Below, in pieces: positions 5,001 to 49,901 of a stretch of DNA of 64,000 nucleotides (the stretch's first letter is position 1; each line of letters begins with the position of its first letter). The DNA lies in the NCBI GenBank assembly GCA_964016885.1, contig OZ024741.1, positions 97,526,001 through 97,590,000 of the forward strand, written 5' to 3'. The notes under the pieces were generated by a model, which made no database searches, was not told the origin of the DNA, and saw nothing but the letters and a program-made list of their open reading frames with translations. The DNA comes from Eledone cirrhosa. Lineage: Eukaryota. The position numbers and the translations under genes are program-made.

Positions 5001-6641
5001 GTAGCCGGGCCCTTGCCTATGGAGTCTATCTAAGTCATCTTCACAGATCACAAATTTGTGGTCCGTGTAGTCGACTACTTTAGATTGTGGACAACCTACA
5101 CTAACCTTATCTGTTTCCCTACAGAATACCCTATCTGAATACGATCTGGATGACACTATGCGGTTTGCCCATGTCCACATTGGCACATTCGGATAATCCA
5201 GTCTATACCTGACAGACGAGTTCAAAATGTCTGAGCAGGTTGTTGAGGTTTTTACACCCTCCTGTCCTGTCTACTAACCCCACCCAATCCCAGCGTGCAT
5301 CTAAGATACCGTTCCAGTCAACCACTAACACTAAAGAGCGGGACGTTCCAAGAAAGGTCTCTAGACGTCTGAAGAAACCTGCCCGCCCTACCCCAGTTGG
5401 GGCGTAGAAGGCTACTAGCCTGAAAGCAATGCCTTCGCTGCCGGTCACGTCAACCAGGTGACCCTGCTTCCAAGATGACCCCAGGCCACGTGCATTTATA
5501 CTGCCTATTCTGAGTACGGCCATGTTGGATGAGAAACGGGCAAGTGAGAAAGGGTCACTTACCTGGATCGTGTGGTGAAGGGACAGTAGAACCGTCCCTA
5601 TGGCTGATCATGGGTATTTCCAAGTGGACGTCAGTGAATATCCTCTTCGTAACCGACCCTCTGAAGTCTCCAACTGCGTTGGGGAATTTTTGTTTTGAAA
5701 GTTTGTACTGTTCTATTTTGATTTCAATGATACTTATGTTTGTCGGGAGAGTGCTTGGTGTTGGTGGGGTGTAGTAATTTCTTTCTGTGATGTCTGTGTG
5801 CTGCTTTATATGTTGTATGACTTCTTTGTTTGCCATGTACTTTTGGGGGGGGGGAGGGGCGATTTTGTTCCTGTTTTCTTGTTGTTGCTGTTGGGTGTGT
5901 GTGTTTTGTTGTGTTTGCGATGTTGGTGTTTTTGTTGATGCTGGTGGTTGCGTGGTTGTTGTTGGTGGTAATGCTTGTGGTGGTGATGGTGATGGTGGTT
6001 GTGTTGCTGCAAGTTTGCTTACAGCCTTTACCCCTCTTTGACTGCCTTCACTTTTGGAGGGTGAAGTTAAGGGGTTTTTCCTCTTTTGTTTTTTGTGGCA
6101 GATCGTTTGCCACTTCCCACCCGCCTCATACTCCATGTCATATTCCGTGACGCCTGGGAGGGTTATGAGCTCCACTGCTGTTGGTGGTGGTAGTGGAGTC
6201 CGTTCCGGCGATTTTGCCGCCGGTGTGGTTACTGCGGCTGTTGGTTTTGCCGCCACTGCCGCCGCTGCTTTAGTTGAAAGTGGCCATGGTATGGGTGCCA
6301 CGAACGTTTCCCTCCTACTCACCATGGAAGGGTCTTCTGCTTCTGTTGCCTGCCCTGCTCTTGGTAGTAGCGGATCAGGCGTCGGAAGAAGGGGGCCCCT
6401 TCTTGGCTGTGTTCTGCGGGCAGAAGGCCCTGAGGTGACCCTTCTTCCCCCAGAGATAGCACTTTAGGCGCCTTCCTGCCATGCTTATAGGGAGTTGGCG
6501 CCGTTCTTAGAGGTCTATGATGTCTGGGATAGACTCGATGCACACCTGGTCAGTCTGTATTAGCATTTGCATGCCTATTCCTGACCAGTTCTCTCTTCCA
6601 ATTCTCTGTATTTGCAGTATGGTGGTCTTGCCCTCGATTCC
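2071..6641 (-). mobile_element. Tx1/L1-clade non-LTR retrotransposon, family B copy 1, 5'-truncated and degenerate
   Basis: ORF2 fragments: MAVLRIGSINARGL (APE), PGYWKLN, ENFRPVTLLN, DQSKAFDRVD, SAYADD. ORF1 C-terminal half at 5555-6325. 3' end gcccttgtggccAATAAA followed by an ATT tract. Several internal deletions relative to the copy at 29859-35819. Confidence 0.93.
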
Positions 6642-6768
6642 AAAGTATATATCTTAATTGTTTCTACTTTTGGCACAAGGCCAGCAATTAACCAGTGTAT
6701 TACTGGTACTTTATTTGGGTAATTGCTGGCCTTGTGTCAAATGTAGAAACAATTAAGATATATACTTT
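6642..6768. repeat. Inverted repeat built from two SINE 3' ends (arms about 50 bp)
   Basis: aaagtatatatcttaattgtttctacttttggcacaaggccagcaatta ... taattgctggccttgtgtcaaatgtagaaacaattaagatatatacttt; the arms match the SINE tail at 60929-61011. Confidence 0.8.
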
Positions 6769-24080: not shown

Positions 24081-27000
24081 GGTCTAATCGGACGTATGTT
24101 GCTCGCTCCCAGTAAGTCACTTTATTTGCCTGTTAAAATTATTTGTTGTTAAATATTTCTTGTTGTGTAAGGGATATAAGCCCTTAGACTTTGTCTCGTG
24201 AAGGGGAAAGTATAATATTGGGCCTTTTGGCCCAAATATTTGAACTTTTTTTACATTTTAAAAAAATTTACGGAGAAAAAAAACATGGCTGAGCCACGCC
24301 CCCCAGCGATATGTCTGCTGTCGTGCGACAACGACGTAGAGATTGAGAGGAGCACTACAGCGAAATTAACACCAATTGATAACACAAACACCACCACAAA
24401 GAATGTAAACAAAGAAACAAATGATACCAATGAGAACTCTAATTTTGAAAAAAATGACAGTAACAGCGACAACGAAAATACAGATAATTAAAAAAATGAT
24501 AAATGCAACAACAATATCAACACCACTAACATGAAAACAAATAGCGACAACACCAACAGCAACAATACCAACTGCACCGAGAATAACGGTGGAAAGAAAC
24601 AGTGATAACAACAACACCAACAAGAACAACGACAACCACAACAACACCCCCAACGAAAACAAGAAAAAGAGTTTCGCTGCAGCAGAAGCAAAAAAGAGGC
24701 CATGCTTCAACATGGACCTCTCAAACAAAGATGAAAAGTTGGCCCAGGCATGGAAGCTCATCAAGCAAGAGCAAACCTGGGCCAACTTAAATGTCCCGGT
24801 AGAAGCTATTGAGGCAGTGGAGCGCAGAACGGTGCATTATAGATGCATCTCAGCAAAAACCAAAAGGTCAGCTTTAATCCCACAAGCAGATGTCGAAGTC
24901 GCGGTGAGGTGAATCAGAGAAGACACCGAATACATAGAGAGGAGCCGACAGTACGGCACCATTTCGGTGCTGTTCAAGTCAGAAGCCCTCGCTATGAAAC
25001 ACGCTATGACTCCTTGCAAAACCAGCAAGGTCATAATGTACCCATCCCACATGGGAAAAAGAACGGCCAGTCTCCGCATTCCCAGTATTCCACCAGGACT
25101 TGACATGTGGTGGCTTCTGGGATGTGTGATTGTGGAGCTGACGGATACCATCCCTATAGAAGTGACCAGAACGGCCATAGAGGAGTGGTCCGGGGTTCAC
25201 CTGGAGATCCTTCTCCAGATCAGGCCCGAGAATGTGAAGACAATCCCGAACCACATCCGCCTTCAGAATGGGACGGTCATTCACATTATGACCGAAGGCA
25301 AAAGGCCGCAGTGTTTTGTTTGTGGGGAAAAAACCCATTTGAGAGCCTTCTGCCCTCAACTGCTGAAAGAGGCAAGGGGTCGAAAGGCTCCATTGCTGCT
25401 GACGCCGGGGCGATGACCACAACCAACACCAGCACCGGCAAAACCACCAACAACAACACCAATAGAAAGACCACCACCAACATTGACCACCCAGGGGAGA
25501 AACGAGGAAAGCTGTCAAATTCCCCCTACTCCCAAAATACACACACCAATAAAACCATAAACATACACACAGACACACTTACGTACACAGACCCCTCATC
25601 TACCAGTAGGGAAGATGAGGGAAAACCAAAATCCCCCAAAATACAAAAAAACGAAATACAAAAAGAAAAAAAAATCTCAACAAAGCACAAAATCACCCAC
25701 AATAAAAAACGCAGACACCACCCACGCAAATATCTCTCCAATTACACCAACATCAACACCACTATCACCATCACCAAAATCCCCCAAACGCAAACAACCT
25801 AAACAGACGCAAGAACATATAAACACAAACAACTGAAACCACAGACACCGCACTCACAACAAACAGACACAACCGAAACAACACCACCAAAACAATCACA
25901 ACACAGCCACGCAAACAAATAAAATCACACCAACGAAACATACAAAACTTCGTGCTCGTCAGGAGGGCCAACAAGGAACTGATGGCCCTCGTAGCACGAA
26001 GTGAAAATATACAAAAAGAGGGGGAAATGTTTAAATCGAGCACATTTCGCATGCCGGAAGATTTGGTTCTGGTGCGAATGTCGCTCGATTTATACAAAGA
26101 AATACGAGACAGCTTTCCTCGGGACGTGGGAACCCCGAACGTAAAACCCACTTCAAGACTTTTAAAGGGTTCCCAAAAGAAACCCCACCAACTATGGAGG
26201 TCGGACAACCCGACCTTCACAAGAGCCCGGAAGGTAAGTAAACATTTCCTCTCTCTCTTTTTAACCTGCCAACATGGCCGTATTAAGAGTAGGATGTTTA
26301 AATGTTCGAGGCTTGGGATCGTCCTTGAAGCAGGGTCACCTGCTCAACGACCTCAGGTCTCTACAAATGGATGTAATTGCCGTCAGCGAGACCAGGATTT
26401 CCGACACGCGCGCACTAGCCCCCATTTTCGACGGCTATCAGATCTTTGCATCTGTTAGCCGGCCGGGAATGGGAGGCGGGGTGCAGTGCTGTTTAGGAAA
26501 GGCCTGGATCTCGAGGTAAGGTCGATCTTCCGGGAGCCGGACGGGAAGTTGGTGGTCCTGGACGTGAACAATAACGAAGGTGGTGCCTTTAGACTGGTGG
26601 CCGTCTATACTCCTACTGGGGCAGGACGGCCGGACTTCTTTAGACGCCTGGAAGCCTTTCTGGGTACGTCTCGCCCTTTACTGTTAGCGGCGGACTGGAA
26701 CGGCATCTTAGAAGCACGCTGGGATTGTGTGGCAGTATCCGATAGGAGTGGGGGGGGGGGGCTTGCACAAACCTCAAGAACCTGATCAGCCAGTTCTAAC
26801 TGTGTGACAGGTACCGACTAGATTTCCCTAATGCGCCAGTGTGGACCTGGACTAACCGCATAGGGTCATCTAGATCGTATATAGACAGGATATTCATTAG
26901 GAAAATAGACAGAAATAGTGTAAGCTGTCCACGTTTTGAAACGATTGCCTATTCAGATCAGATAGGACGCGTAGGTTAGGATCTGTTTACTGGAAGCTAA

Positions 27001-29837
27001 ACATGTAATTTCCGGCACGTAAGGCTTACAGGGACCAGGTCAACAATTTAGTTCATAAAACGTTGACAGGGGGAGTCGTCAACAATAGATGGTGGGGTCT
27101 CTCAAAAGAGAGATTAGAGTAATGTCGATAGAGTTTAGCAAAGAAGTAACGTTAGAGAAAAATAGAAAGGAGGGGGAGTTGGTAGATAAGTTAGACGAGG
27201 CTATTGGTAGTGGCATTTCAACTGACGTGCTAGCGGCGAGAATGTCATTAGACAATTTCTTCAATGCGAAACAAAATGGTTACATTGTCAGAGCTGAGGC
27301 GCGTGCACTGAGAAGCAAGGGAACCAAAGCTGTTCGATGGGCCCGCGTGGCAGAGGCGCACCGTGGTTCGGGGGAAGTGGCGGGTCATAGAGGGTGGCGG
27401 ACTTCAGTCCCTACCTCGATGGCTTGCCGCAACTCTCGACGGATGACGCTGGGTGTTCCGAAAGGCCAATTACTTCAGCCGAGATTCAGGATGCTCTTGA
27501 CGGCTGCATGAGGCGCAAGTCACCCGGTTTGGATGGTCTGCCCTACGAGCTTTACGTAAATATGCCAGACTTGTTCTCCAATCTCCTCGAAGCCCTCTAC
27601 TGCAACTGGCAGCAAAACGGGAGTATTCCCAGTTCTGTGAGCCGGGGTGTAGTGACGCTGATAAGGAAAGACGAGAACAAGAGGGACACATTAGACAATT
27701 TCAGGCCCATAACTCTGCTCAACACAGAGTTTAAGATTTTGGCCAGGGTGTTAGCGAAGAGGTTGGCGCTTGTCGTCGGGGATTTGGTTTGGGAAGCGCA
27801 AACTTGCGCAATCCCAACCAGGTCCATACACGACAACCTCCACCTAATGCGATACATCATAGAAAGGGTAGGGTGTAAACCTGGCTTCGGTGGGGCTCTG
27901 ATCAATTTAAGTCAATCGAAAGCATTCGATAGGGTCGACCATTGGTACATGGAGGCTGTCCTCAAGGCGGCTGGCTTCGGCCCCGTCTTGAGAAGCTAGA
28001 TCACTGCAATGCACAGCGGCACCTGCTCGATAGTCAAAATAAATGGCCACCTCTCGGAACCGTTTCACGTCGCCCGATCGGTCCGTCAAGGGTGCCCTCT
28101 CTCCTCCCTTCTCTACGTATTGACTATCGAGCCTTTACTGCGGAAGCTGGAGCTGTTGCAGGGCAGCCCGCTTGAACCGGGACGCGGAGGCTGTGTCGCC
28201 TTATGCGGACGACATCACCGTGATGGTGTCGGACACCTCAGAAATCGAGGTGGTCGGCAACTTATTGGAGGAATATGAAAGTTTGACGGGAGCACCTGGA
28301 GAGGCAAAGCCATGCTGTCCAACAACGTCGTTTGGCGCTGGACGGACGGACCAGTAAAGTTGCTCGGGGTTTGATTCGGGCCAGACCTCCAGGTGGATAA
28401 GAATTGGGAGGAGGTGAAGGATAGGGTAGCCAGTCTCACCCAGAAATGGGCTGGGATGAAGCTATCACTGAAAGGTCGGGCTGAGGTGGCGAAAGCGTAC
28501 ATGGCGTCCATTATCTACTACTGTCTTCCCGTCGTCCCTTGCCCCCGTTCGCGCCTCGCCATCTTGTAGCGGCTCCTCTACAAATTCATGTGGGTGTGGG
28601 GGATCAGGGTCCGCTGGTGAGGCGGTCCATCTGCTGCCAGCACTCTCTACGTGGAGGGCTGGGCATGCTGTGGCTAATGATGCGCAGGCACGCGCTGAGG
28701 CTGCGGCATCTCCAGATATTCTGCCTAAAGGGTGAACAGGTGTGGTCGCCGTTTGTTAGACGGGCCTTTCCGCAGCTCGTTTCTTTGACTGAACTGCAGT
28801 CCTAGGTCAAGAAGAGACCGAGAGTGGATGACTGAAATCAGAAATGTTGCCAGGCACTCACTGCCCTCTACCAGGCGGCCAATGCGGTCAGTGGAACTTC
28901 CACTCTCGATTTCTATAGAGGATTAGTGGTGGGCTAGTGCGACGACGCACTCGGAGAGGCTCAGGGAGTCAACGAAGTCGAACTAACCAGTCTGTACTGG
29001 AGGACTTTCGAGCCGGGGACGATGGATAATTTCCAAAAATCCCTCGCTTGGCAGTGCTACCGGGGGGCACTGCCGGTTCGAGATAAACTCGACAGCCACG
29101 GAAGTGCTGTCAGACGGACCTGCCCGAGATGCGCGCAGAGTGACGAAACCGTTCTGCACGCACTCATCCAGTCTCCGTGCATTACTGACTTGTGGAGTTA
29201 TGTTGAACAGCTGTTGTCGCGTGTAGAACGGATCCGTTCATCGGCCGAGTCCATAGTCAAGATCGACCGGCCGCCTTCTTTTGGCCAGGAAGGGCAGGCA
29301 ATTTTCCTCTGTCTAGTGGCAGTAGCGAAAGAGGTTGTATGGTGAACGAGGTTGAAAGGACTGAAGACAGACACTTTTCTCTTCGGCCAATCCCTCATCA
29401 AATTGTTCAAGTTTCCCTTGGAAAGGAAGGTGAGGGTGGAGAGAGAAGTACTGCCCCCCCCCCCCCCCCCCACCACACACACACACACACATACCCCACC
29501 CACCCAGTACATTTGCTGTAAGGTGGGTGAATGTGGCGAGAATGGGCCGTGTGAGTGGGCCTACGCTGGTCATGCGGCTGTAGGTTGGTAAATTTAAGGA
29601 GAAGAGGGGGTGCCCTTCCATCGTGCTCTCGAAGCGTCGGGTCGTTCAGGATTGGTGGGGTACCTTAGCGAACCCTGTGTTGTCATCCCCTCCTATTGGG
29701 GAATTTTTTCTTGTAATTTTATTCTTACATTGTTATTGTTATTCATATTGTTTACTCGATTTTCCTGTAAAACCCCACTGCCCTAGTGTTTTGTATTGTC
29801 CCCTATATGTCGGCCCTTGTGGCCAATAAATGAAATC
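24081..29837 (+). mobile_element. Tx1/L1-clade element, family A copy 1, near full-length, degenerate
   Basis: Flanked by (ATT)n on both sides. ORF1 24285-26241 (N/T-rich start, CFVCGEKTHLRAFC knuckle). ORF2 from 26274 (MAVLRVGCLNVRGL; KSPGLDGLPYE; QSKAFDRVDH; RQGCPLS; YADD; CPRC..HAL) with many stops and frameshifts. Confidence 0.95.
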
Positions 29838-29858
29838 ATTATTATTATTATTATTATT

Positions 29859-32800
29859 AATGTTGGTGAAGCCACGCTTCTTATCGCCTCCAGTTTTTTT
29901 CAACGTTTTACCACGTTTTCAACCGTTCTAAACCGTTTATTCAAGTTTTAAGTTTGATAAAAGTTTAGAAGAAGTGACCCACCTAATACAGGGGTAAACT
30001 AGTAAACAATACGGCACTCCTTTACGTATTCGTAATACTTTTTTGAAAAATGTCAACATGGATAACACAAGAAAGAGAGAGAGCGCTGTCAGACAACACA
30101 GAGAGAGGGAGACTTTATCAGCATGTCAACAAGACAGCGTTCCAGCGGAATAATATAAACGAAAATATTACAAAGGAAAAGAAGATTGTTACAGATTTAA
30201 AATTAACAAATATTTCTAACACAAACAACGCCAACAAGAACACCATCAATAACAACAGCAACAACAAAATAACAGCGGTAAAGTTGGGAACGACAATAAC
30301 AAAAATAACAGCGGTAAGGTCGAGAACGACAATAACAATGACAATAACAACAGCCACAACAACAATAATAGTAGGAACAGTATCAACAAAAACAACAATA
30401 ATAACAACAGCCACAATAGCAGAAACAACAGCAACAGTATCAATGAAAACAACAACAACAACACCTACAACTGTACCAACGAAAACAACAACAATGACAC
30501 CGATACCTGTAATAGCGATCTCAGCACCACCAGTAAGACCAGTAGCGACAGCAATAATGGTGCTGCTGAAAAAGGGACCACTTCTTTTGCACGTGTCACC
30601 CGAAATATCGAGACAGTGTTATTCACAGAGGAGGAGATGGTAGTTGCAAGGGCCATGGTGACAAGAAGCGCAAATAGAGTCTCCCTGAAACCTCCACCCG
30701 ATTTTTTCAAGGACCAGCAACTACGGACGGTGTCTTACCGCACCGTAAGCAAAATCTCACATCGGGTGGAGAGAGCCACGGAGGCTCAAATCCAAAAGAT
30801 CTTGGGGTGCGTCTGGGCACGCAAAACCCACATCACCCGAGGCAGAAAGTACGCCAAAGTAGACGTACATTTCGCCACCCCCCACGAAGCAAAGTCTCAC
30901 TCTTTGAAAACCCTAAAGAGTGAGGAAATAGTCTTGGTGCCCTCCTACTGCGGGCAGAAAGTTGTGAGGGTCAAAGTGACCCAGGTCCCACCCAACGTGC
31001 CCATATCTTGGCTGGCCGCGTCTGTCCTTGCTGGAATCGAGAACAGGACGACCATGCTGCTAGTAGAAAAAATAGGGAGAGGGAACTGGTCAAGTATAGG
31101 CAAGCAAATGCTTATACAAACTGACCAGGAATGTATCGACGCTATCCCTGATATCATAGACATCGAGGAAGGACTCCAACTCCCTATAAATCTAGAAGGA
31201 AGACGGCCAAAATGTTATCTCTGTGGGTCGAAGGTTCACCTCAGGGACTTTTGCCCGCAGAAGACAGCGACGAAGGCCCCCCCCCTCCTTCCAATGCCTG
31301 GTCCGCTGCTACCAAGAGCAGGGCAGGCAACAAACGAAGAAACCCCTTCCATGGTGAGTAGGAGGGAAACGTCCGTAGCACCCGTACCAAGGCCACGGAC
31401 AACTAAAGCAGCATCATCAGTGGCGGCAACACCAATATCTACATTTGAAGTAGCTACACCAGCAACAAAATTGCCGAAGAGGGCTCCACTACCACCACCA
31501 ACAGCCGTGGAGCACACACACCCTCCCAGACGCCACAGAATCCGACATGATGTTTGAGGCGGGAGTGAAGTGGCAAACGATCTGCCACAAAAAACAAAAA
31601 AGAAAAAAAACCTTAGATTCACCCTCCAAAAGCGAAGCCATACAAAGAGGAGTAAAGGCAGCAAGGAAACTTGCAGCAACACCACCACCTTCACCACCAC
31701 AAGCACTACTGACAGCAACAACCACACCACCACCAGCATCACCAAAAACACCAACAACGCAAACACAACTAGACACACACACCAAACAGCAACAAGAATA
31801 AAACAGCAACGAAATTACCCCTCCCCCAAAAAAGTACACAGCCATAAACATGGCAAAAAAAGAACTCATACAATATATAAAGCAGCACACAGACATCAAG
31901 GAAAAAAACTGCTATACCCCACCAACACCAAGAACTCTCCCGACAAACATAAGCCTCATCGAAATCTCATTAGAACAATATAAACCTTTAAAACAAAAAT
32001 TTCCCAACGCAGTTGTAGACTTCAGAGGGTCGGTTACCAAGAGGATATACACTGACATCCTCTTGGAAACACCCATGACCCACGAAAGGGACGGTTCTAC
32101 TGTCCCTTCAGCACACGATCAAGGTAAGTGACCCTTTCTCACTTGCCCCGTTTCTCATCCAACATGGCCGTACTCAGAATAGGCAGTATAAATGCACGTG
32201 GCCTGGGGTCATCTTGGAAGCAGGGTCACCTGCTCAACGACCTCAGGTCACTAAACATAGATGTGGTGGCCATCAGTGAAACCAGAATCTCCGAAGCACA
32301 AGCCTTCGCACCGATCTTCGGCGGCTACGATGTATACGCATGTCCCAGCCGCCCAGGATCGGGGGAGGGGTTGCCGTCCTTTTTCGGAGAGGCTTGGATC
32401 TCGTGATACGGGCCATTTTCCTGGACCCAGAAGGTAAGTCGGTGGTGCTGGACGTGACCGGCAGCGAAGGCAATGCTTTCAGGCTAGTAGCCGTCTACGC
32501 CCTAGCAGGGGCAGGATTGCCAGACTTCTTCAGACGTCTCGAGACCTTTCTTGGAACCTCCCGTTCTTTAGAGTTAGTGGGAGACTGGAACGGTATCTTG
32601 GATGCACGCTGGGATCATGTGGGGCTAGTGGATAGGGGAGGAGGGTGCAAGAGCCTCACCAACCTGCTCAGACGTTTTGAACTGTATGACAGGTATCGAC
32701 TGGATCACCCGAATGTGCCAATGTGGACATGGATAAACCGCATCGGGTCATCCAGATCGTATCTCGATAGGGTATTCTGCAGAGAACTAGATAAGGCTAG

Positions 32801-37645: not shown

Positions 37646-38189
37646 TTATTATTATTATTATTAGGATGAGAATGAAATATGTGAAGATTATTATAATCAA
37701 CATGATGATCATGACGATATTGGTATTTGTTTTTACTCTCTTTTATTATACCTACAAATGGAAATCTTGAAGTCCACTCTCAGAATTTATTTATATTACA
37801 GGTGCGGTAAGATTGACTGTCAAATGTTAATTGCTATCTTTCAGTTGATACTTAAAAACATTCCATTCAAGCACAGTACTCAATGTAGCCCTAAATAGGC
37901 ATGGCGTAATATGTGGTGATGAAAGAAAATAATAATAATGATCTCTTTATTAACCACAAGGGTTTACATAAAGTAGACATTAAGGACAGTGCAGGACAAT
38001 GCAGGACGGTACAAATGGGCATTTCTGCGTGTAAAAAACAAAAACAGAGGATGTAACAAAAAATAACAATGAAAAATTCCCCAATAGGGGAGAGACTTCG
38101 GAGGGACATTTGTGGAGAAAGCCCAGTAAAAAGCCACAATGACCCTGACCACCAAGGCAAGTGCCCTCTCCCAGTTTTCCACCTTTAAT

Positions 38190-41100
38190 TTACAGATATA
38201 TACTCAGAGTAGTCCCATTCACTCGGGCCATTCTTGCTTCTCTCACCCATCTTTCAACAAAATGCTGGGAAGAGAGCACTTCCCTCTCTACTCTGATTTT
38301 CCTTTTCAAATGAAATTTGAAAAAGTCAATCAGAGCATCACCGAAGAGGAAAGTGCTCGTCTTCAGCCCTTTCAAACGTGTCCACCATACTATCTCTTTC
38401 GCCATGGCCACCAGACAGATAAAAACTGCCTGCCCTTCCCGGCTAAAGGAGGAGGGCGGGGCAATCCTCACGATGGACTCAGATGATAGCCGGATCCGTC
38501 CTAAACGCGACAGCAGGTGTTCGACATAAACCCACAAGTCAGCAATTTTCGGACACTGGACGAGTGCGTGCAGGACAGTTTCGTCGCCCTGCGCACATCT
38601 CGGACATGCCCGGCTGACGGCACCTCCATGCCTGTAGAGTTTATCCCGAACTGGCAAGGCTCCTCGGTAGCACTGCCAGGCCAGAGATTTCTGGAAGTTG
38701 TCCATAGGCCCCAGCCCGAAAGTTCTTCCGAAGAGATTGGCTAGTTGATTTTCGTCGACGCCTAGAGTTTCCCCAAGTACGTCGTCGCTCTTCCCCTCCA
38801 CTAATCCTCTATAGAACGCCGAGGTGGAGTTTCCACCGATCACATTGCCCGATTGGTCGAGGGCTGTGAGCGCCTGAAGACATTCCAGTCTCCAGGCGCT
38901 CCCTCTCGGTCTTCGCTTGACCCAGGACTGCAGCTCCGTCAAGGAAACGAGCTGGGGAAATACGTGTCTAGCAAACGGCGACCACACCTGATCACCGTCG
39001 AGGAAGAGGTGGAGATGTCGTAGCCTGAGCGCGTGCCTGCGCATCATCAGCCACGGCATGCCCAGCCCTCCACGTAGCGGGTGTTGACAACAGATGGACC
39101 GCCTGACCATCGGAGCGCGTCCCTTCCACAAGAAGCGAAAGAGCAAACGCTCCAGCGCAGTCAGGCGAGGCTTAGGACAAGGTACGACGGTCAGGCGGTA
39201 GCAGATGACAGACGCGATGTACGCGTTAGCCACCTCCGCTCGACCTTTCAGGGATAACTTCCTCTCCGCCCATTTCTGGGTGTTAGAAACCACCCTGCTC
39301 GTCACCTCGTCCCAGTTTTTGTCCGTCTGGAGGTCCGGACCGAACCAGACCCCTAGCAATTTAACCGGTCCGTCCGTCCAGCGTCCGACGACGTTGTTGG
39401 ACGGCATGGACCTGCCTCTCCAGGTGCGGAGCTGCAGGCCCACTGACTTTTCCTGGTTGATCATTGCTCCTGTCACCGCTTCGTATTCTCTTAGTGTAGT
39501 GCCGATCGCCTCGATGTGTTTGGCGTTCGACACAACTACGGTGACATCGTCCGCATATGCTGACACGGATCTTCCGCATCCTAGTTCGCGCGGGACGCCC
39601 CTCAACGTCTCCAGTTTGTGCAGTAATGGCTCGAGAGTCAATACGTACAAGAGGGACGAGAGGAGACATCCTTGGCGGACCGAGCGCATGATGTTGAACG
39701 GTTCCGACAGGTGACCGTTCACTCTCACCACAGAGCAGATGTCGCTGTGCATGGCAGCGATCCAGCCTCTGAAGACGGGCCCAAAGCCAGCCGCCCTCAG
39801 GACTGCCGCTAGGTAACGATGGTCGACCCTATCGAAAGCTTTCGACTGATCTAAATTGTTCAAGGACCCACCCGTGCCAGGTTCCTTAGCTACCCTTTCT
39901 ATGATGTATCGCATGAGGTGGAGGTTGTCGTGGATGGATCTGTCGGGAATGGCGCATGTATGCGCCTCTCCCACCAGACCACCAACTACAAGCGCCAACC
40001 TCTTTGCTAGCACCTTGGCCAAAATATTGAACTCTGTGTTTAGCAGAGTTATGGGCCAGAAATTATCTATGTTATCCCCCTTGTTCGGATCCTTTCTCAG
40101 CAGTGCCACCGCTCCTCGGCTCACAGAACTGGGAATTCTCCCGTTCTGTTGCCAGTTGCAGTAGACGTCCGCCAAGAGGCCTCCAAACAAGTCTGGCATC
40201 TGTACGTAAAGTTCATAGGGCAGACCATCCAAACCAGGCGATTTACCCCTTGTGCAGCCAGTCATTGCCTCCCTTACTTCAGAGGCTGTTATCGGTTTTT
40301 CGCAACACTTCGCCTCAGTGGCCGAGAGCCGCGGCAGTCCGTCGAGGTAGACACTAAAGTCCATCCCTCTACCCGGCCCACCGCTGCCCCCGAACAGCTG
40401 AGCGAAGTGTCGCTGAAAAGCTTCACACATTTGCCCGGGATCGAGTAGCATGCGCCCGTCGTGGTCCACCAAAGACCGGATCGTGGCTTTGTTGCCACGA
40501 CGCGCCTCCGCCACTCGGGCCCATTGAACGGCTTTCGTCCCCTCGTGTCTGAGAGCACGCACCCTTGCTCTGACAACGCAGCCTTCGTGCTTTGCATTGA
40601 AGAATTGGTCAAGGGCCAATTTCGCCGCAAGCACGTCGGTCGCAATGCCTTTGCTAAGCGCCTCGTCTAATTTTCTAACTAGTTCTCCCTCTGCTCTATT
40701 TTTCTCTATTGCTAAAGCCTTACTAAACCTAATCGATTCTATTCTAATCGCTCTTTTCAGAGCAAACCACCACTTGTTGTTGACGATGGCCCCCGTCAAC
40801 GCCCGCTTAACTAGTTCGCTAATCCTGTCTCTGTAGGCCTTGCGCGCTGGTAAGGACGCGTTTAGCTTCCAGTAGCCGGGTCCTCGTCTATGAAGCCTAT
40901 CTAAGTCAACCACACAGATCACGAATTTGTGGTCCGTGTAGCTGACTATCTTGAATTGTGGACAGCCTATGCTAGACGTATCTATTTCCCTACAAAATAC
41001 TCTATCTAGATATGATCTGGATGACCCTATGCGATTTGTCCAAGTCCACATTGGCACATTCGGGAAATCCAATCGGTACCTGTCAGACAGTTCAAAACGC

Positions 41101-41609
41101 CTGAGCAGGTTGGTGAGGCTCTTGCACCCTCCACCCCTATCCGCTAATCCCACACAGTCCCAGCGTGCATCTAAGATCCCGTTCCAGTCGCCCACTAACA
41201 CTAAAGAGCGGGACGTTCCAAGAAAGGTCTCCAGACGCCGGAAGAAATCAGGCCGCCCTGCTCCTGTCGGGGCATAGACGGCCACTAGCCTGAAAGCTTG
41301 CCCTTCTCCGCTGGTCACGTCCAGCACCACCAGCTTACCCTCTGGGTCCAGGAAGATGGCCCGTATGGCGAGATCCAAACCTCTACGAAAAAGCACAGCA
41401 ACTCCTCCACCCGATCCAGGGCGGCTGGGAATTGCGTACACATCGTAGCCGCCGAAGATCGGTGCGAAGGCCCGTGCTTCGGAGATTCTGGTCTCGCTGA
41501 TGGCCACTACATCTATGTTTAGTGACCTGAGGTCGTTGAGCAGGTGACCCTGCTTCCATGACGACCCCAAGCCACGCGCATTTATGCTGCCTATTCTGAG
41601 TGAGGTCAA
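38190..41609 (-). CDS. Tx1 ORF2: apurinic-like endonuclease, reverse transcriptase and C-terminal zinc finger (1139 aa)
   Basis: SINARGL, VVAISET, VGDWN, SYLDR, YTDH (APE); KSPGLDG, DQSKAFDRVDH, VRQG, YADD, KLLG (RT); CPRC..ETVLHALVQC. The start codon is TTG where the paralogue at 47666 has ATG. Confidence 0.96.
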   Translation of the reverse strand: MTSLRIGSINARGLGSSWKQGHLLNDLRSLNIDVVAISETRISEARAFAPIFGGYDVYAIPSRPGSGGGVAVLFRRGLDLAIRAIFLDPEGKLVVLDVTSGEGQAFRLVAVYAPTGAGRPDFFRRLETFLGTSRSLVLVGDWNGILDARWDCVGLADRGGGCKSLTNLLRRFELSDRYRLDFPNVPMWTWTNRIGSSRSYLDRVFCREIDTSSIGCPQFKIVSYTDHKFVICVVDLDRLHRRGPGYWKLNASLPARKAYRDRISELVKRALTGAIVNNKWWFALKRAIRIESIRFSKALAIEKNRAEGELVRKLDEALSKGIATDVLAAKLALDQFFNAKHEGCVVRARVRALRHEGTKAVQWARVAEARRGNKATIRSLVDHDGRMLLDPGQMCEAFQRHFAQLFGGSGGPGRGMDFSVYLDGLPRLSATEAKCCEKPITASEVREAMTGCTRGKSPGLDGLPYELYVQMPDLFGGLLADVYCNWQQNGRIPSSVSRGAVALLRKDPNKGDNIDNFWPITLLNTEFNILAKVLAKRLALVVGGLVGEAHTCAIPDRSIHDNLHLMRYIIERVAKEPGTGGSLNNLDQSKAFDRVDHRYLAAVLRAAGFGPVFRGWIAAMHSDICSVVRVNGHLSEPFNIMRSVRQGCLLSSLLYVLTLEPLLHKLETLRGVPRELGCGRSVSAYADDVTVVVSNAKHIEAIGTTLREYEAVTGAMINQEKSVGLQLRTWRGRSMPSNNVVGRWTDGPVKLLGVWFGPDLQTDKNWDEVTSRVVSNTQKWAERKLSLKGRAEVANAYIASVICYRLTVVPCPKPRLTALERLLFRFLWKGRAPMVRRSICCQHPLRGGLGMPWLMMRRHALRLRHLHLFLDGDQVWSPFARHVFPQLVSLTELQSWVKRRPRGSAWRLECLQALTALDQSGNVIGGNSTSAFYRGLVEGKSDDVLGETLGVDENQLANLFGRTFGLGPMDNFQKSLAWQCYRGALPVRDKLYRHGGAVSRACPRCAQGDETVLHALVQCPKIADLWVYVEHLLSRLGRIRLSSESIVRIAPPSSFSREGQAVFICLVAMAKEIVWWTRLKGLKTSTFLFGDALIDFFKFHLKRKIRVEREVLSSQHFVERWVREARMARVNGTTLSIYL

Positions 41610-41644
41610 GTTTAAAATAGAGTGGAAAAGATGGGAAAGACCAC

Positions 41645-43761
41645 TTACCGTACTTTTGGTAGAGGAGGGATGGTTTTTACATCCCTTTTCATTTGATCGT
41701 CTGGTGAAGGGACCGTTGAATCGTCCCTTCGGCTGGTCGTCGGCTCTTCTAAGAAAATGTCTAAATATACTCTTCGATTGATGTTTCCTCCTAGGTCCCT
41801 GAAATCACCAACTGCGTTGGGGAATTTCGTTTTAATGTTTGTGTATTGTTTCTGTGCTATTTTTAGCAGTCTTATGTTAGTTGGCGTTTTGATTGGTGCT
41901 GGTATTATGTAGTCCTGTTGTGAAATGTGTGTGTGTTCAATTATGTAAGTCATTAGTTTCTTGTTGTGTGTATTTATTGCCGTGCATTTGTTTTTCTGGG
42001 GGTGGGGTGTGGTTCCGCTATTTTCTTGTCGTTGTTGCTGGGTGTGTGTGTTTTGTTGTTGTGTTTGCGATGTTGGTGCTTGTGGTGGTGGTGTTGAAGG
42101 TGTTGTTGGCGGTGGGGTTGTCGCCGGTGGTGATGGTGGTGCTAGTGTGGGTGGTGATGGTGTTGGTGGTGTTGCTGCTGTGGGTCTCTTTGCAGTAGAC
42201 TTTACCCTTTTCTCATTTCTTTCCTCCCTTTTCAAAGGCGACGTTGCGCTGCTTCTGCGTTTGTGCCTTCTTACGACCTTTTGCCATCCCTCTCCCACCT
42301 CACACTCCATGTCTGATTCTGTGAGGTCGGGGAGGGGTACCAGCTCCACTCTTTCACTTGTTGTTGTTGGTGATGTTTGCACTGGAGTCTCTGTTGCAGC
42401 TGCATTTGGTATTGCTGTTGTTGTTGTTAATATTTCCACTGCTGCTGCTGTTTTTGATTTCCGTGGCGTGGGTATGGGTGTCACGGACCTATCGTTCCTG
42501 GTTGCAGCTTGTCCTGTTGCTGGTAGCCGTGGAGCCGGATTCGGAAGGAGGGGGGGGGGGTTCTCCTTTCTCAGGGTCTTCTCGTTGCAGAAGGCCCTGA
42601 GGTGAGTCTTCGATCCACAGCGAAAGCATTTCGGGCGTTTGCCCTCAACACTTATGGGCAGTTGAGTGCCGTTATCGAAGTCTATCACATCCGGGATAGC
42701 TTCGATGCACTCCTGGTTGGTTTGGATTAGCATCTCAATGGAGGTGCCGACCCAATCTTCTCTTACTTTTTTCTGTACTTGCAGTACAGTTGTTTTGTCC
42801 TCGATTCCGACGAGGACAGACGCGGCCAACCAAGAAGGAGCCATTCCGGGGGGGGGGGGGGGGGGACGTGGGTCAGTTTGACCCTCGCAATTTTTTGCCC
42901 GCAGTAGGAGGGCACCAACACCATTTCCTCGCTCCTTAGGGTCACTACGGATTGGGCCTTTGCCTCCTGGGGTGTGGCAAAAAGTACGTCTACAGTGGCA
43001 TATTTTTGGCCTCGGGTGATGTGCGTTTTCCGCTGCCACACAGACCCCAAGGCTTTTTGTATTTGGGCCTCTGTGGCTCTTTCCACCCTACGGGATTTTG
43101 TACATACTGTAAGGTACGTGACCGTACAGTGCTGTTGGGTTTCGAAAACATTTTCCGCTGCCTTGCAGATTGCTCGGTGTCCATTCTTTGTCACCATCTT
43201 CTTCGCTTCCTCTAATTCCTCATTTGTTATGAGGATTGTTTCCAAGTTTTTCGCAATACCTGCAAATGAGATTGGTTTTTCTTTGCTGCTGTTGTTGTTG
43301 TTGTCGTCAGAGCTGCTGTTACTTTTGTTGTTGCTGCAGGTACTACGACTACTGCCTTCGCCGCTGTTGCTGTGGTTGTTGTTGGTGTTGCTGCTGCTAA
43401 TGCTGTTGTTGTTTATGCTGCTGGTGATGCTGTTGCGGCTGCTACTGTTGTTTTCATTGTCACTGTTGCAGTTGTTATTACGGCTGCTACTGCTATTATT
43501 CCTGACGTCAGACGAATGAACTGGGTTTTCGTATTTCCCGCACACCTGTTTCGTCTCTGTCGTCGCCGTCGTGGAGAAACCTTGCACGCTTTGCACGAGA
43601 CTTTTCTTTTCTTTCGTCACTTGCGAAAGAGAAGGGAGGGAGAGAGACACATTTAAAGAAGGGAGGGCGAGAGACAATCTTCTCTCTGCTGTAGTGATGA
43701 TTGAGGAAGCAGAAGACGGAATGAGTGGGAGTGACCTATGAAATTTCTTTTTCATAGCCAT
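41645..43761 (-). pseudogene. Tx1 family C ORF1 (nucleic-acid-binding, single CCHC knuckle), one frameshift in a G-run near 42848-42865
   Basis: ORFs 42763-43761 and 41645-43039 join at the homopolymer; CFRCGSKTHLRAFC; homologous to the ORF1s of B and D. Confidence 0.88.
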
Positions 43762-44000
43762 GTTGTTGTTTTATTGGTTAAAATAAATATTGGGTACAAA
43801 ACCCCAATAAGCAGCTATTTAACCCCGAAGGGCCAAATAACGGGCAGAAAGACCCCTCTCACGAGGAGGAGGGTGTTTTTATCTACAAATTCGTTAAAGT
43901 TTTAAACAATTTTCAATTGTTATAGTGTTCAAAATGTTCAATACCTTACAGAGCCGAGCCACCGTCAAAAATAGCATTCAATAATAATAATAATAATAAT

Positions 44001-47000
44001 GTTTTCTTTATTAACCACAAGGGTTTACATAAAGTAGACATTAAGGACAGTACAGGACAATACAGGACGGTACAAATGGGCATTTCTGCGTGTAAAAAAA
44101 ACAGACGATGAAATAAAATAACAAGGAAAAATTCCCCAATAGGGGGGAGACTTCCGAGGGACATTTGTCGAGAAAGCCCATTAAAAGACTACAGTGGCCC
44201 TGACCACCAGGGCAAGTGCCCTCTCCCAGTTTTCCACCTTTAATTTACAGACACATACTCAGAGAAGGCCCATTCATTCGGGCCATACTTGCTTCTCTCA
44301 CCCATCTTTCAACAAAATGCTGGGAAGAGAGCACTTCCCTCTCTACCCTGATTTTCCTTTTCAGATGAAATTTGAAAAAGTTAATCAGGGCATCACCGAA
44401 GAGGTAAGTGCTCGTCTTCAGCCCTTTCAAACGTGTCCACCATACTATCTCTTTCGCCATGGCCACCAGACAGATAAAAACTGCCTGCCCTTCCCGGCTA
44501 AAGGAAGAGGGCGGGGCAATCATCACGATGGTCTCAGCTGATATCTGGATCCGTCCTACACGTGACAGCAGGTGTTCGACATAAACCCACAAGTCAGCAA
44601 TGCTCGGACACTGAACGAGTGCGTGCAGGACGGTTTCGTCGCCCTGTGCGCATCTCATCTCGGACATGCCCGGCTGACGGCACCTCCATGCATGTAGAGT
44701 TTATCCCGAACTGGCAAAGCACCCCGGTAGAAATGCCAGGCCAGGGATTTCTGGAAATTGTCCATAGGCCCCGGCCCGAAAGTCTTTCCGAAGAGATTGG
44801 CTAGTTGATTTTCGTCGACGCCTAGAGTTTCTCCAAGTACGTCGTCGCTCTTCCCCTCCACTAATCCCCTATAGAACGCCAAGGTGGAGTTTCCACCGAT
44901 CACATTGCCCGATTGGTCGAGGGCTGTGAGCGCCTGAAGACATTCCGGTCTCCAAGCGGTCCCTCTCGGTCTTCACTTGACCCAGGACTGCAGCTCCGTC
45001 AAGGAGACGAGCTGGGGAAAAACGTGTCTAGCAAACGGTGACCACACCTGATCACCGTCGAGGAAGAGGTGGAGATGTCGTAGCCTGAGCGCGTGTCTGC
45101 GCATCATCAGCCACGGCATGCCCAGCCCTCCACGTAGCGGGTGTTGACAGTAGATGGACCGCCTGACCATCGGAGCGCGTCCCTTCCACAAGAAGCGAAA
45201 GAGCAAACGCTCCAGCGCAGTCAGGCGGGGCTTAGGACAAGGTACGACGGTCAGGCGGTAGTAGATGACGGACGCGATGTACGCGTTAGCCATCTCCGCT
45301 CGACCTTTCAGGGATAGCTTCCTCTCGGCCCATTTCTGGGTGAGAAAAGTTACCCTGCTTGTCACCTCGTCCCAGTTTTTGTCCGTCTGGAGGTCCGGAC
45401 CGAACCAGACCCCTAGAAATTTAACCGGTCCGTCCGTCCAGCGCCCGACGACGCTGTTGGACGGCATGGACCTGCCTCTCCAGGTGCCGAGCTGCAGGCC
45501 CACTGACTTTTCCTGGTTGATCATTGCTCCTGTCACCGCTTCGTATTCTCTTAGTGTAGTGCCGATCGCCTCGATATTTTTGGCGTTCGACACCACTACG
45601 GTGACATCGTCGGTATATGCTGACACGGATCTTCCGCATCCTAGTTCGCGCGGGACCCCCCTCAACGTCTCCAGTTTGTGCAGCAATGGCTCGAGAGTCA
45701 ATACGTACAATAGGGACGAGAGGGGACATCCTTGGCGGACCGAGCGCATGATGTTGAACGGTTCCGAAAGGTGACCGTTCACTCTCACTACAGAGCAGAT
45801 GTCGCTGTGCATGGCAGCGATCCAGCCTCTGAAGACGGGCCCAAAGCCAGCCGCCCTCAGGACTGCCGCTAGGTAACGATGGTCGACCCTATCGAAAGCT
45901 TTCGACTGATCTAAATTGATCAAAGACCCACCCGTGCCAGGTTCCCTAGCTACCCTCTCTACGATGTATCGCATGAGGTGGAGGTTGTCGTGGATGGATC
46001 TGTCGGGAATGGCGCATGTCTGTGCCTCTCCCACCAGACCACCAACGACAAGCGCCAACCTCTTTGCTAGCACCTTGGCCAAAATCTTGAACTCTGTGTT
46101 TAGCAGAGTTATGGGCCTAAAATTATCTGTTATCCCCCTTGTTCGGATCCTTTCTCAGCAGCGCCACCGCTCCTCGGCTCACAGAGCTGGGAATTCTCCC
46201 GTTCTGTTGCCAGTTGCAGTAGACGTCCGCCAAGAGGCCTCCGAACAAGTCTGGCATTTGTACGTAAAGTTCATAGGGCAGACCATCCAAACCAGGCGAT
46301 TTACACCTTGTGCAACTAGTCATTGCATCCCGTACTTCAGCGGTTGTTATCGGCTTTTCGAAACACTCCGCCTCAGTGGCCGAAAGCCGCGGCAGTCCGT
46401 CGAGGTAGACAAAAAAGTCCATCCCTCGATCCGGCCCGCCACTTCCCCCGAACAGTTGAGCGAAGTGTCGCTGAAAAGCTTCACACATTTGCCCGGGATC
46501 GAGTAGCATGCGCCCGTCGTGGTCCACCAAAGACCGGATCGTGGCTTTGTTGCCACGACGCGCCTCCGCCACTCGGGCCCATTGAACGGCTTTCGTCCCC
46601 TCGTGTCTGAGAGCACACACCCTAGCTCTGACAATGCAGCCTTCGTGCTTTGCATTGAAGAATTGGTCAAGGGCCAATTTCGCCGCAAGCACGTCGGTCG
46701 CGATGCCTTTGCTAAGCGCCTCATCTAATTTTCTAACTAATTCTCCCTCTGCTCTATTTTTCTCTATTGCTAAAGTCTTACTAAACCTAATGGACTCTAT
46801 TCTAATTGCTCTTTTCAGAGCAAACCACCACTTGTTGTTGACGATGGCCCCGTCAACGCCCGCTTAACTAGTTCGCTAATCCGGTCTCTGTAGGCCTTGC
46901 GCGCTGGTAAGGACGCGTTTAGCTTCCAGTAGCCGGGTCCTCGTCTATGAAGCCTATCTAAGTCAAGCACACAGATCACAAATTTGTGGTCCGTGTAGCT

Positions 47001-49901
47001 GACTATCTTGAATTGTGGACAGCCTATGCTAGACCTATCTATTTCCCTACAAAATACTCTATCTAGATATGATCTGGATGACCCTATGCGATTTGTCCAA
47101 GTCCACATTGGTACATTCGGGAAATCAATTCGGTACTTGTCAGACAGTTCAAAACGTCTGATCAGGTTGGTGAGACTCTTGCACCCTCCTTCCCTATCCA
47201 CTGATCCCACACAATCCCAGCGTGCATCTAAGATCCCGTTCCAGTCGCCCACTAACACTAAAGAGCGGGACGTTCCAAGAAAGGTCTCCAGACGCCGGAA
47301 GAAATCAGGCCGCCCTGCTCCTGTCGGGGCATAGACGGCCACTAACCTGAAAGCTTGCCCGTCTCCGCTGGTCACGTCCAGCACCACCAACTTACCTTCT
47401 GGGTCCAGGACGATGGCCCGTATGGCAAGATCCAAACCTCTCCGAAAAAGCACAGCAACTTCTCCCCCCGATCCCGGACGGCTGGGAGATGCGTACACAT
47501 CGTAGCCGCCGAAGATCGGTGCGAAAGCCTGTGCTTCGGAGATTCTGGTCTCGCAGATGGCCACTACATCTATGTTTAGTGACCTGAGGTCGTTGAGCAG
47601 GTGGCCCTGCTTCCATGACGACCCCAAGCCACGCGCATTTATGCTGCCTATTCTGAGTGAGGTCATGTTGAAAAGGAGTGGACGAGATGGGAAAGACCAC
47701 TTACCTTACTTCTCGTAGGGGAAGGACGGTTTTTCCATCCTTTTCACTGCTTGTGGCCTCCTCAGGTAGGATGTCCTTATAAATCCTCCTGGAGAGTGCT
47801 TGTCGGAAGTCTCCGATGTCTTTGGGGAATTTTTTTTTTAGTGTCATGTACGTTTTCTGTGTGATGCGAGTGATTTGTATGTGTGGAGTTGGTGTGAATT
47901 TTGGGGTTGTTGTGTAGTCTTTTTCTGTGATGCTGGTGTTGTGTTGGATGTAGTGTAATAATTGCTTGTTGTTCAAATTTAATGCTGTGTAGTGTGTATC
48001 GTTTTGGTTGTTTTGTTTTGTTTGCGTTTGTTTTGGGTTTGTTTCTGTTTCGCATTTTGGTGACTTTTGTGGTGTAGGTGATGGTGGTGTTGGGGTTAAT
48101 GATTGTATGGTGTTGGTGTTTGGGTTGATGGGGTTGGTGATGCTGGTGTGGATGGTGGCATATCTGTCCTAACTTTTTTGTTTCTTAGTTTATTTGTTTC
48201 CCTCTGTATTTTGTTTTTGGAGGGGGAAGGAAGAGAATTTTTTCTTTTTTGGTTTTTTTTTTTTCTTCCGGATATCTTTTCCCACTCCTCGTCGTCACAA
48301 TCTGTCTCCAGTTGTGATAGGCCGGGGAGTGGAAAATCCTCCACAGGCGTTAGTCTTGGTTGTGGCGTGGTGGATGGTGTAGGCGCTGGTGCTAGTTCTG
48401 AAGCGTTGGGTGGTGGTGGTGTTGGTTTTGCTGGTGGTGGTGGTGGTGTTGGTTTTGCTACTGTTGCTGGGGTTGTTGCTGTTATAGTTGCTTCTGTTGT
48501 TGCTGCTACAGTTGTTGCTGCCATCTCTGCTACTGGTGGTGTTGATGGTTGTGTCACTGGGGTGGGTAGGAGAGGTGGCCTCAACCTTTTAGCCTGAGGG
48601 CAGAAAGCCCTTAGGTGGGTTCCTTCACCACAAACGACACACCTAGGTCTTCTGCCCTCGACAATTACCGTGAGGTGGCTGCCGTCAGTGAGGTCTATTA
48701 CCTCTGGGATCTCCTCAATGCTTTTTTGGTCCGCTTGGATCAGGAGCTCCATCCCAGATCCGGACCAGTTCTCCTGCTTTTCTTTTGCTATTGCTATTAT
48801 TTTTGTGTTGGCTTCGATGCCGGCGAGGACGGCCGCTATTAGCCAGGGAATTTCGATGGCCGGTGGAACGTGGGTCACCCTAATCTTTACGAGTCTTTGG
48901 CCACAATAGCTTGGGACGAGTGTGAAGTCGTCACTTCTTAATGGGGCCATGGAGTGTTCTCTAGCCTCATCTGGTGTTTCAAAGAACACGTCCACGGTTC
49001 CATACTTTTGCCCACGTCTGATGTGGGTTTTTCTTGCCCACACATGTCCCAAAGCTTTTTGGATTTGGGACTCGGATGCGCGTTCCACTCGGCGCGATTT
49101 TACATTTATTGTTCGATACGCCACGGTGCATAGGCGCCGATGCTCCATTTTATTAGGTGGGGGGGGGGGCTGACCCTGTACCCATCTTTCTTTACCATTT
49201 GTTTGGCATTTTCTAAATCCTCCTGAGTTACTGTAAATGCTTCGAACTGTTTTGCTACTCTGGGGAAACTGAGGGTGGTTTTTATAACGTCATTTTTGTT
49301 GTTGTTGCTATCGTTATTTGTGTTAATATTAATTTTAGTTTCAGTTGTGGTGGTGGTGACGTCATTCGTCTTTGGTGGGGAAGAGTCCATTTTGCTTGAT
49401 TTCATTTCGACATCACCAGTTAATTAATTTTTTTCTTCTTTTGTTTCTGTTGTCGCGGTGGTAGTGGGGGTGGGGGTTGTCGCGGTGGTGGTGGTGGTGG
49501 AGGCTTTAACACCTGCAGTCATTGGTAATGGCAGGAAATGTATGTCTGCCTGAGACAAATTTAAAATATTGCTACTGCTTATATTTTTTTTAGTGTTGGC
49601 AAACGTAGTAACATTTACAATGGTGGTGTCGGTGTGAGGTGTTAATTTGTGAGGAAGGCTTTCAGCTGCTTGGTGCAGAGGTGAATTAGCCATTTTTTTT
49701 TCAAAGAAATATTTGATAATAATAAAAGTTTAAATTTTGGGCACAAGGCCCCAATCTTTTTGGGTGTCCTTTTCGGAAAACAATGTATGTGCGCTTATAT
49801 ATGCTTAACAATAAACATTTTCCATAAAGGCAATTTTTAACAAACGGAAATAACAAACCTTTGCGGAGCTCACGATGATACGATTTACTACGTAGGTCGC
49901 C
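44001..49901 (-). mobile_element. Tx1/L1-clade element, family D, full-length, few frameshifts
   Basis: ORF1 49693 to 47701 in pieces (CVVCGEGTHLRAFC); ORF2 47666 to 44245 in pieces, very similar to family C ORF2; (AAT)n at 43980-44000 and 49902-49932. Confidence 0.96.

Follow-up and report, generated by a model that had tools for sequence, protein, structure and literature searches.

The window analyzed here, a 64,000-nucleotide stretch of contig OZ024741.1 from the octopus Eledone cirrhosa, contains six related LINEs that encode an endonuclease and a reverse transcriptase (EN-RT), and in each of them the junction between ORF1 and ORF2 carries the heptamer GGTAAGT. The layout can be followed in copy A1, a decayed Tx1-like element at 24081..29858 (+) that begins just past an (ATT)n run and ends with an AATAAA (29825..29830, +) and an (ATT)n tail. 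Its ORF1 (24285..26241, +) is broken by frameshifts and stops and ends in GGT AAG TAA; a local hairpin is predicted just 5' of the motif (26196..26218, +), as it is at a comparable position in families B, C, and D. A pyrimidine-rich spacer with 76% C+T (26240..26273, +) then leads through CCAAC to the ATG of ORF2 (26274..29583, +). This frame, which is also broken, encodes the endonuclease and reverse transcriptase and terminates at a TAG (29581-29583) that is at the same time a weak candidate splice acceptor. The spacer lies within the 5' strand (26224-26283) of a predicted long-range duplex, hereafter the zipper, whose 3' strand (29572..29627, +) covers the end of ORF2 and the start of the 3' UTR.

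The best-preserved coding sequence is the open ORF2 of copy C (38190..41609, -; 1139 codons), with Pfam matches to Exo_endo_phos (PF03372), RVT_1 (PF00078), and zf-RVT (PF13966), i.e., an N-terminal AP endonuclease, a reverse transcriptase, and a C-terminal zinc finger. In these elements an ORF1 of 587-634 aa with a CCHC knuckle precedes ORF2, which is the architecture of the Tx1/L1 group of LINEs; open ORF1 frames of 479-550 aa were found in the intact C/D copies and one of 300 aa in B1. In a tree that holds no named Tx1 or L1 reference, the window elements group with L209, P0001, P0002, and P0014 (support 1.0). The elements end in (ATT)n in families A-D and in (TCTA)n-like runs in E-J. The designation Tx1-like is thus based on architecture and simple-repeat ends.

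Several other features of these elements were observed. Copies D and C lie head to tail in the window (37928-49900, -) and are 94.7% alike in ORF2 and the 3' UTR, with differing ORF1s; the ORF1 of copy C resembles that of B (64%), which points to ORF1 swapping. Tandem arrays with a spacing of about 5.9 kb are common in the genome. In two further genomic copies (L168 and L174), the ORF1 end is duplicated and the donor and spacer are still kept downstream. A GGCCTTGTGCC-like motif occurs in the 5' UTR about 35-45 nt past a TATA-like box (24220; 49751, -; 60764, -) and also in the 5' UTR of the distant relative described below (L209); the same word forms the end of a short repeat at 6682 (-), 23914, and 60952 (-). 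Fragments of other reverse-transcriptase elements occupy 2-604 and 52040-53179 (+). Outside this genome, the NCBI gene model "tectonic-3-like" of Octopus sinensis (P0004) contains about 60 residues of the element endonuclease at 62% identity, a piece that was probably exonised or mis-annotated.

An earlier note, made from the sequence of the window alone, had reported GGTAAGT at the ORF1 stop of six Tx1 copies in two reading frames, and each of its six coordinates was verified. On the forward strand, the motif lies in A1, where the nine-base donor AAG|GTAAGT spans 26231..26239 with a predicted cut between 26233 and 26234, and in B2 (32123..32129); on the reverse strand, it lies in B1 (5557..5563), C (41643..41649), D (47699..47705), and A2 (58675..58681). 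The two frames are likewise real: ORF1 ends in CGG TAA in C and AGG TAA in D, and the motif reads GGT AAG followed by a stop in A and B (TAA in A1 and A2, TGA in B1 and B2). The six copies do carry the motif, but they represent about three lineages (A, B, and C/D) and not six independent cases. With 11 occurrences of GGTAAGT in the window against a shuffle mean of 7.8 (21 of 100 shuffles reached at least 11), the count alone is not significant; the position of the motif is. The B2 donor also falls within a predicted local 9-bp hairpin, and in family B more generally (32123-32150 in the window; L142) the donor is hidden in such a hairpin, whose 3' arm mimics the 5' end of U1. A second GGTAAGT, encoding P-E-G-K, lies about 308 nt into the would-be intron of B2 (32433, +) and D (47390, -); most families do not have it.

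Genome-wide, a pattern for the ORF2 N-terminus alone returned 12,204 matches (37 for the control), and the motif combined with the ORF2 start returned at least 9,743 (control, 12). Among the first 100 rows of ORF2-start matches, GGTAAGT was counted by eye in 73, GGTAGGT in 12, and GGTGAGT in 8, so that GGT(AA/AG/GA)GT stands 21-46 nt before ORF2 in 93 of the 100; the other seven comprise point changes, one deletion, one GGTAATT, and one GGTCAGT. With P0001 as the query, a genome search retrieved families B, C, and D and no others. From 32 fetched genomic stretches, 14 subfamilies were defined; groups L and M, single copies picked because they deviate, were left out of the motif counts, and the -1 base listed for G2 is biased by the choice of copies (G in L148-L150). 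Across these subfamilies, +1 G, +2 T, and +6 T are invariant, +5 G is present in 13 of 14, and +3 and +4 are only A or G. For comparison, the ORF2s of 16 groups agree throughout at no more than 35 of 357 third codon positions and at 3 of 28 fourfold sites.

The relation of the motif to the reading frame is less constant. Ten subfamilies (C, D, E, E2, F, G0, G1, H, I, and K) have the ORF1 stop within the motif; in A, B, and G2 it lies four bases beyond that position, and in J ORF1 reads through the motif in a third frame. These three frames would require at least four shifts on the ORF2 tree, if the ORF1 ends follow that tree. The abundant family J (L159-L163, G000:C1 5.8-19.2 Mb) has ATA at the position of the ORF2 ATG, and its ORF1 read-through stops exactly there, which suggests either a non-AUG start or a family dependent on others. 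As for the TTG start attributed to copy C, it is present but is a minority variant, with ATG in most of the 30 C-type loci. The proposal that the motif is kept beyond its neighbours holds between subfamilies but not within one, where 96-100% conservation compares with 95-99.9% for neighbouring bases and the motif is intact in 25/30, 27/30, 17/20, and 20/20 copies; this is expected, because copies decay after insertion. Taken together, the sequence comparisons show the junction motif to be a real and deeply conserved signal that likely has a function. GGTAAGT, GGTAGGT, and GGTGAGT are all permitted donor forms, but they also spell the three stop codons, and therefore the variants alone do not prove a role for U1.

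Base pairing with U1 provides a more direct criterion. The U1 genes of this genome have the usual 5' end, and the junction site forms the best U1 duplex in 28 of 37 copies and ranks among the top three in 36 of 37, each copy offering 206-333 GT sites (about 280); in A1, it is the best of 299. Complementarity covers positions -2 to +6, with variation limited to wobble pairs. Pairing with 18S rRNA was considered as well and was rejected for the main variant, because the host 18S rRNA holds only ACTCACC, which fits GTGAGT and mismatches GGTAAGT. The identification of the motif as a U1-type 5' splice site is thus well supported: it pairs with the host U1 5' end, survives four arrangements of the ORF1 stop, and finds no match for its main variant in 18S rRNA. 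In unspliced mRNA, a consensus donor that is left unused carries a cost in the form of nuclear retention (PMC4380460). That such a donor is nevertheless kept over this distance implies use or masking, and both seem to be present here.

A distant relative, whose ORF2 shares 40% identity with that of copy C, offers a further test of the motif. A scan with P0014 found 23 loci; 22 of these are arranged in tandem within a single record labelled as a bacterial genome, although this record is most likely host DNA. The junction of the relative reads GAG TAA G|GTAAGT in all 16 loci printed, seven bases before the ATG and without a pyrimidine spacer, and its donor is the best U1 match among 324 GT sites. 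The 648-aa ORF1 stops one base ahead of the cut, on the exon side. With the perfect site thus clear of the stop codon, the motif there is explained neither by that codon nor by the protein. At a constant position in the 3' UTR, each of the six loci printed has an acceptor-like pyrimidine run with a terminal TAG (five were scored, giving 4.9-10.4 bits), and the donor and ATG are predicted to pair with the homologous ORF2 end. About 820-1040 nt past the ORF2 stop, in the 5' UTR of the next tandem copy, L211, L217, L222, and L225 have a second donor-like site, which sits inside a perfect inverted repeat and is followed by a strong acceptor-like site; a masked intron in the 5' UTR is possible. Rfam gave no match in L209, a viral scan found nothing, and a metagenome scan returned one match, which was unrelated.

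Predicted long-range pairing, which the earlier note had missed, belongs to the mechanism held to be likely and is, at the same time, a rival cause of some of the conservation. By prediction, the stretch made up of the donor, the spacer, and the start of ORF2 forms a duplex with the end of ORF2, at a distance of 3.4 kb, and covariation is seen between the two strands. Matched 5' and 3' strands average -34.0 kcal/mol and strands from mismatched families -27.2 kcal/mol (13 families, which are kin; 0 of 20,000 permutations). The duplex extends through the donor, and changes in the partner strand track the donor variants in G1 and H. A family's own ORF2 end is the best pairing window along the element in 8 of 13 families. 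Cofolds pair part of the donor with the 3' strand in 20 of 24 copies, and in only 13 of 24 does the binding beat all eight control windows. Whole-ORF2 folds (3.8-3.9 kb) form the zipper in two of three cases, A1 and C, and not in J. In the minimum-energy fold of the 3.8-kb A1 stretch, 26224-26283 pairs with 29572-29627 and leaves donor positions +2 to +9 unpaired, and in that of copy C the donor is fully paired with 38156-38183.

For a donor to be used, an acceptor is needed, and candidates were scored in bits with a rough matrix of our own in 13 families. No acceptor is strong in all 13; candidates are specific to lineages. The ORF2-stop TAG scores 2.7-6.6 bits in the E-J group, -0.4 in A, and -1.4 in B, and it is replaced by TAA in C/D, where sites of 8-9 bits lie instead in the 3' UTR (38025..38032, -, 8.9 bits in copy C; 44086..44093, -, 8.1 bits in copy D), a type found among the window families in C/D only. 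The claim that no AG is conserved across families before ORF2 stands, although one is present in most A copies and in the G subfamilies, only 28-38 nt past the GT; in the G families, this spacer site scores 8-10 bits at 34-38 nt from the GT. If the donor were joined to the ORF2-stop TAG, translation would end within three codons in 7 of 11 families; chance alone would give about four, and the families are related. In E, E2, F, and G1, the same join would add 19-96 codons. The predicted zipper covers this TAG as well and accounts for its GT, which also counts against ORF1-only splicing.

Spliced retrocopies were sought with genome patterns for the ORF1 end followed by non-intron sequence, which are blind to acceptors whose exon begins like the intron. 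No exact GT-AG spliced retrocopy of the SpIRE type was found among about 7,750 C/D and E/F/G/H copies. For family D (1,069 copies), two patterns gave one and zero matches, none of them exact; for the 4,021 C/D copies with the GT, eight matches included no exact GT-AG join; and for the 3,727 E/F/G/H copies, 30 of 32 matches were inspected with none exact, and a purine-run pattern gave zero. Families B, A, and J (copy totals not counted) gave six, zero, and zero matches, with no exact join. The matches inspected were point changes, small indels, duplications, or deletions. In L173, the donor is joined to an AG 130 nt downstream with one G missing, i.e., one base off; because L234 carries a comparable deletion that lacks an AG and has short shared ends, L173 is probably a DNA deletion. 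No ORF1 homologues that could reveal a spliced C-terminus were found. Contigs of unknown kind yielded no donor joint among the 15 listed of 1,146 on copy D (runs X1, X4, X5, and X6) or among the 15 listed of 31 on L195 (X4, X5, and X6), and no conclusion is drawn from these.

The best explanation at present, for which the chances are just short of even, is that GGTAAGT is a working U1 donor for an ORF1-only mRNA and is masked by the zipper in the full-length RNA. The sequence conservation and the folding models suggest the following course. U1 would bind the donor during transcription of ORF2. Should splicing commit, the donor would be joined to a downstream acceptor that differs among lineages (the ORF2-stop TAG in the E-J group; the 3' UTR site in C/D and in the distant relative), ORF2 would be dropped, and the product would supply surplus ORF1 protein from an RNA without ORF2. 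If the 3' strand zips first, the donor and ORF2 start would be covered and the unspliced RNA could exit the nucleus; a ribosome ending ORF1 would then open the zipper, permitting ORF2 to be made and the full-length RNA to be copied. The cut always falls within a few bases of the ORF1 stop, as would be fitting if the exon closed with ORF1 and the intron took out ORF2 from the start codon onward, on the pattern of GAG in copia EVD (PMC5580714). A more far-reaching form of the proposal, which we hold to be doubtful yet worth stating, treats ORF2 as an optional intron run by the 3.4-kb zipper as one RNA switch. With the switch open, the spliceosome would yield an ORF1-only message that lacks the 5' strand of the zipper and is not copied; with it closed, the donor and ORF2 start would stay hidden until the ribosome ending ORF1 opens them. 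If this is true, a single RNA switch would set the protein ratio, nuclear export, and the choice of the RNA that is retrotransposed.

The missing retrocopies do not bear equally on all forms of splicing. A very short intron could run from the donor to an AG in the spacer or first ORF2 codons and fuse ORF1 to ORF2 in frame; AGs do occur 28-60 nt downstream of the donor, and the strong spacer acceptor of the G subfamilies is in frame for G0 and G1. Yet in G2, A, and J the join does not preserve the frame, and the spacer of the distant relative measures only 7 nt. Moreover, the RNA of such an intron would make ORF2 in cis and should be copied, so that the absence of retrocopies, under patterns able to catch them, counts strongly against it; this fusion is largely refuted by the search and is very improbable. 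An ORF1-only RNA makes no ORF2, and thus the absence counts less against it. It is still counted against ORF1-only splicing, as such an RNA would keep its 3' end. In human L1, spliced copies without ORF1 function require help in trans (PMC5860796). The combination of a strong donor with no universal acceptor and no spliced retrocopy also favours a role for U1 without splicing, in which U1 would shield the nascent RNA from early poly(A) cleavage in the A-rich ORF1 or, as a variant within the same joint reading, would aid transcription through ORF2, after which the zipper hides the site for export. Early termination is blocked by U1 in EVD (PMC5580714), and in 13 families the 600 nt upstream of the donor hold 14 AATAAA where 8.3 are expected. 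However, that count does not come from independent lineages, the representatives of F, G2, and I have no upstream AATAAA, and ORF2 already avoids the signal (2 seen, 6.2 expected). Nor would shielding account for the position of the cut, which is never more than a few bases from the ORF1 stop in any of the four arrangements; overall, this reading is unlikely, though by no means negligible.

The motif might instead be a by-product of the zipper and of translation, with the structure coupling ORF1 termination to ORF2 initiation and U1 playing no role. In this account, the loop of a 3' UTR hairpin would pair with AGG and its arm with GT(G), and the TRR between them would be the ancestral stop codon. 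The variants TAA, TAG, and TGA are the three stop codons, and 10 of 14 subfamilies do use them to end ORF1. Changes in the donor are accompanied by changes in the partner strand (e.g., in G1 and H), a +7 G that U1 does not need is kept in 11 of 16 groups, and the zipper covers the ORF2 start, which in J is ATA in place of ATG. Against this, the motif persists after the frame shifts in A, B, G2, and J, and +2 is invariant though predicted to be unpaired in E, E2, G0, H, J, and the A copies, while flanking paired bases vary freely. The distant relative has a perfect site outside the stop codon and without a pyrimidine spacer, and the ACTCACC of the host 18S rRNA mismatches the main variant. Such a by-product seems distinctly unlikely as the whole explanation.

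The large excess of ORF1 over ORF2 protein that LINEs obtain from a single RNA is generally attributed to translation, through re-initiation in L1 and an overlapping stop and start in SART1. If the spliceosome uses a conserved signal at the boundary of the two ORFs, this would bring in a nuclear step of a kind so far seen in copia-type LTR elements. The LINE group concerned has at least 12,000 junction-bearing copies in this genome, and every copy also places a strong donor into host introns. Nothing in the literature searched, consisting of main texts with few subscription papers or Repbase entries, describes a donor at the point where ORF1 of Tx1-like LINEs stops.

The elements share much with the Tx1 clade. 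Microsatellite-targeting non-LTR retrotransposons of this clade include Kibi, Koshi, and crocodilian Tx1 (PMC4494074), and L1-Tx1 families have been counted in Octopus vulgaris (PMC13282606). As in the available portions of these accounts, there are two ORFs, an ORF1 with a CCHC knuckle, an ORF2 with an AP-type endonuclease, reverse transcriptase, and zinc finger, and copies in simple repeats and in tandem; unlike here, those portions mention neither a donor at the ORF1 end nor a zipper (PMC4494074; PMC13282606). Human L1 also keeps a rarely used donor, G98U99, from which the SpIREs arise, and the authors suggest that RNA structure may hide it from U1 (PMC5860796). That donor, however, sits within the 5' UTR, and a RUNX3 site explains it, whereas the one described here is at the ORF1 stop; spliced L1 copies amount to about 2% of full-length copies, against none exact among the copies searched here (PMC5860796). 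The 5' splice site retention signal offers another parallel, as an unused donor should be costly in unspliced RNA, which would give masking its importance; that signal was demonstrated for cellular and reporter mRNAs in human cells and not for a motif-keeping retroelement (PMC4380460).

The closest likeness is to shGAG of the Arabidopsis Ty1/copia element EVD, in which the structural gene carries, close to its end, a conserved U1 donor through which surplus structural protein is obtained, with U1 also blocking early termination (PMC5580714). EVD itself belongs to the LTR elements and has a single ORF; its intron is short and defined, its RNA forms are proven, and the stop arises through splicing (PMC5580714). 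The octopus LINEs, in contrast, are non-LTR elements with two ORFs and their own ORF1 stop, in which the intron would span ORF2 and the acceptor is not fixed. Having neither LTRs nor a single gag-pol frame, they are not members of the copia shGAG type. By analogy, they may nevertheless work like EVD, and their ORF1-end donor would then represent a new variation on a known retroelement strategy, that of copia-type splicing.
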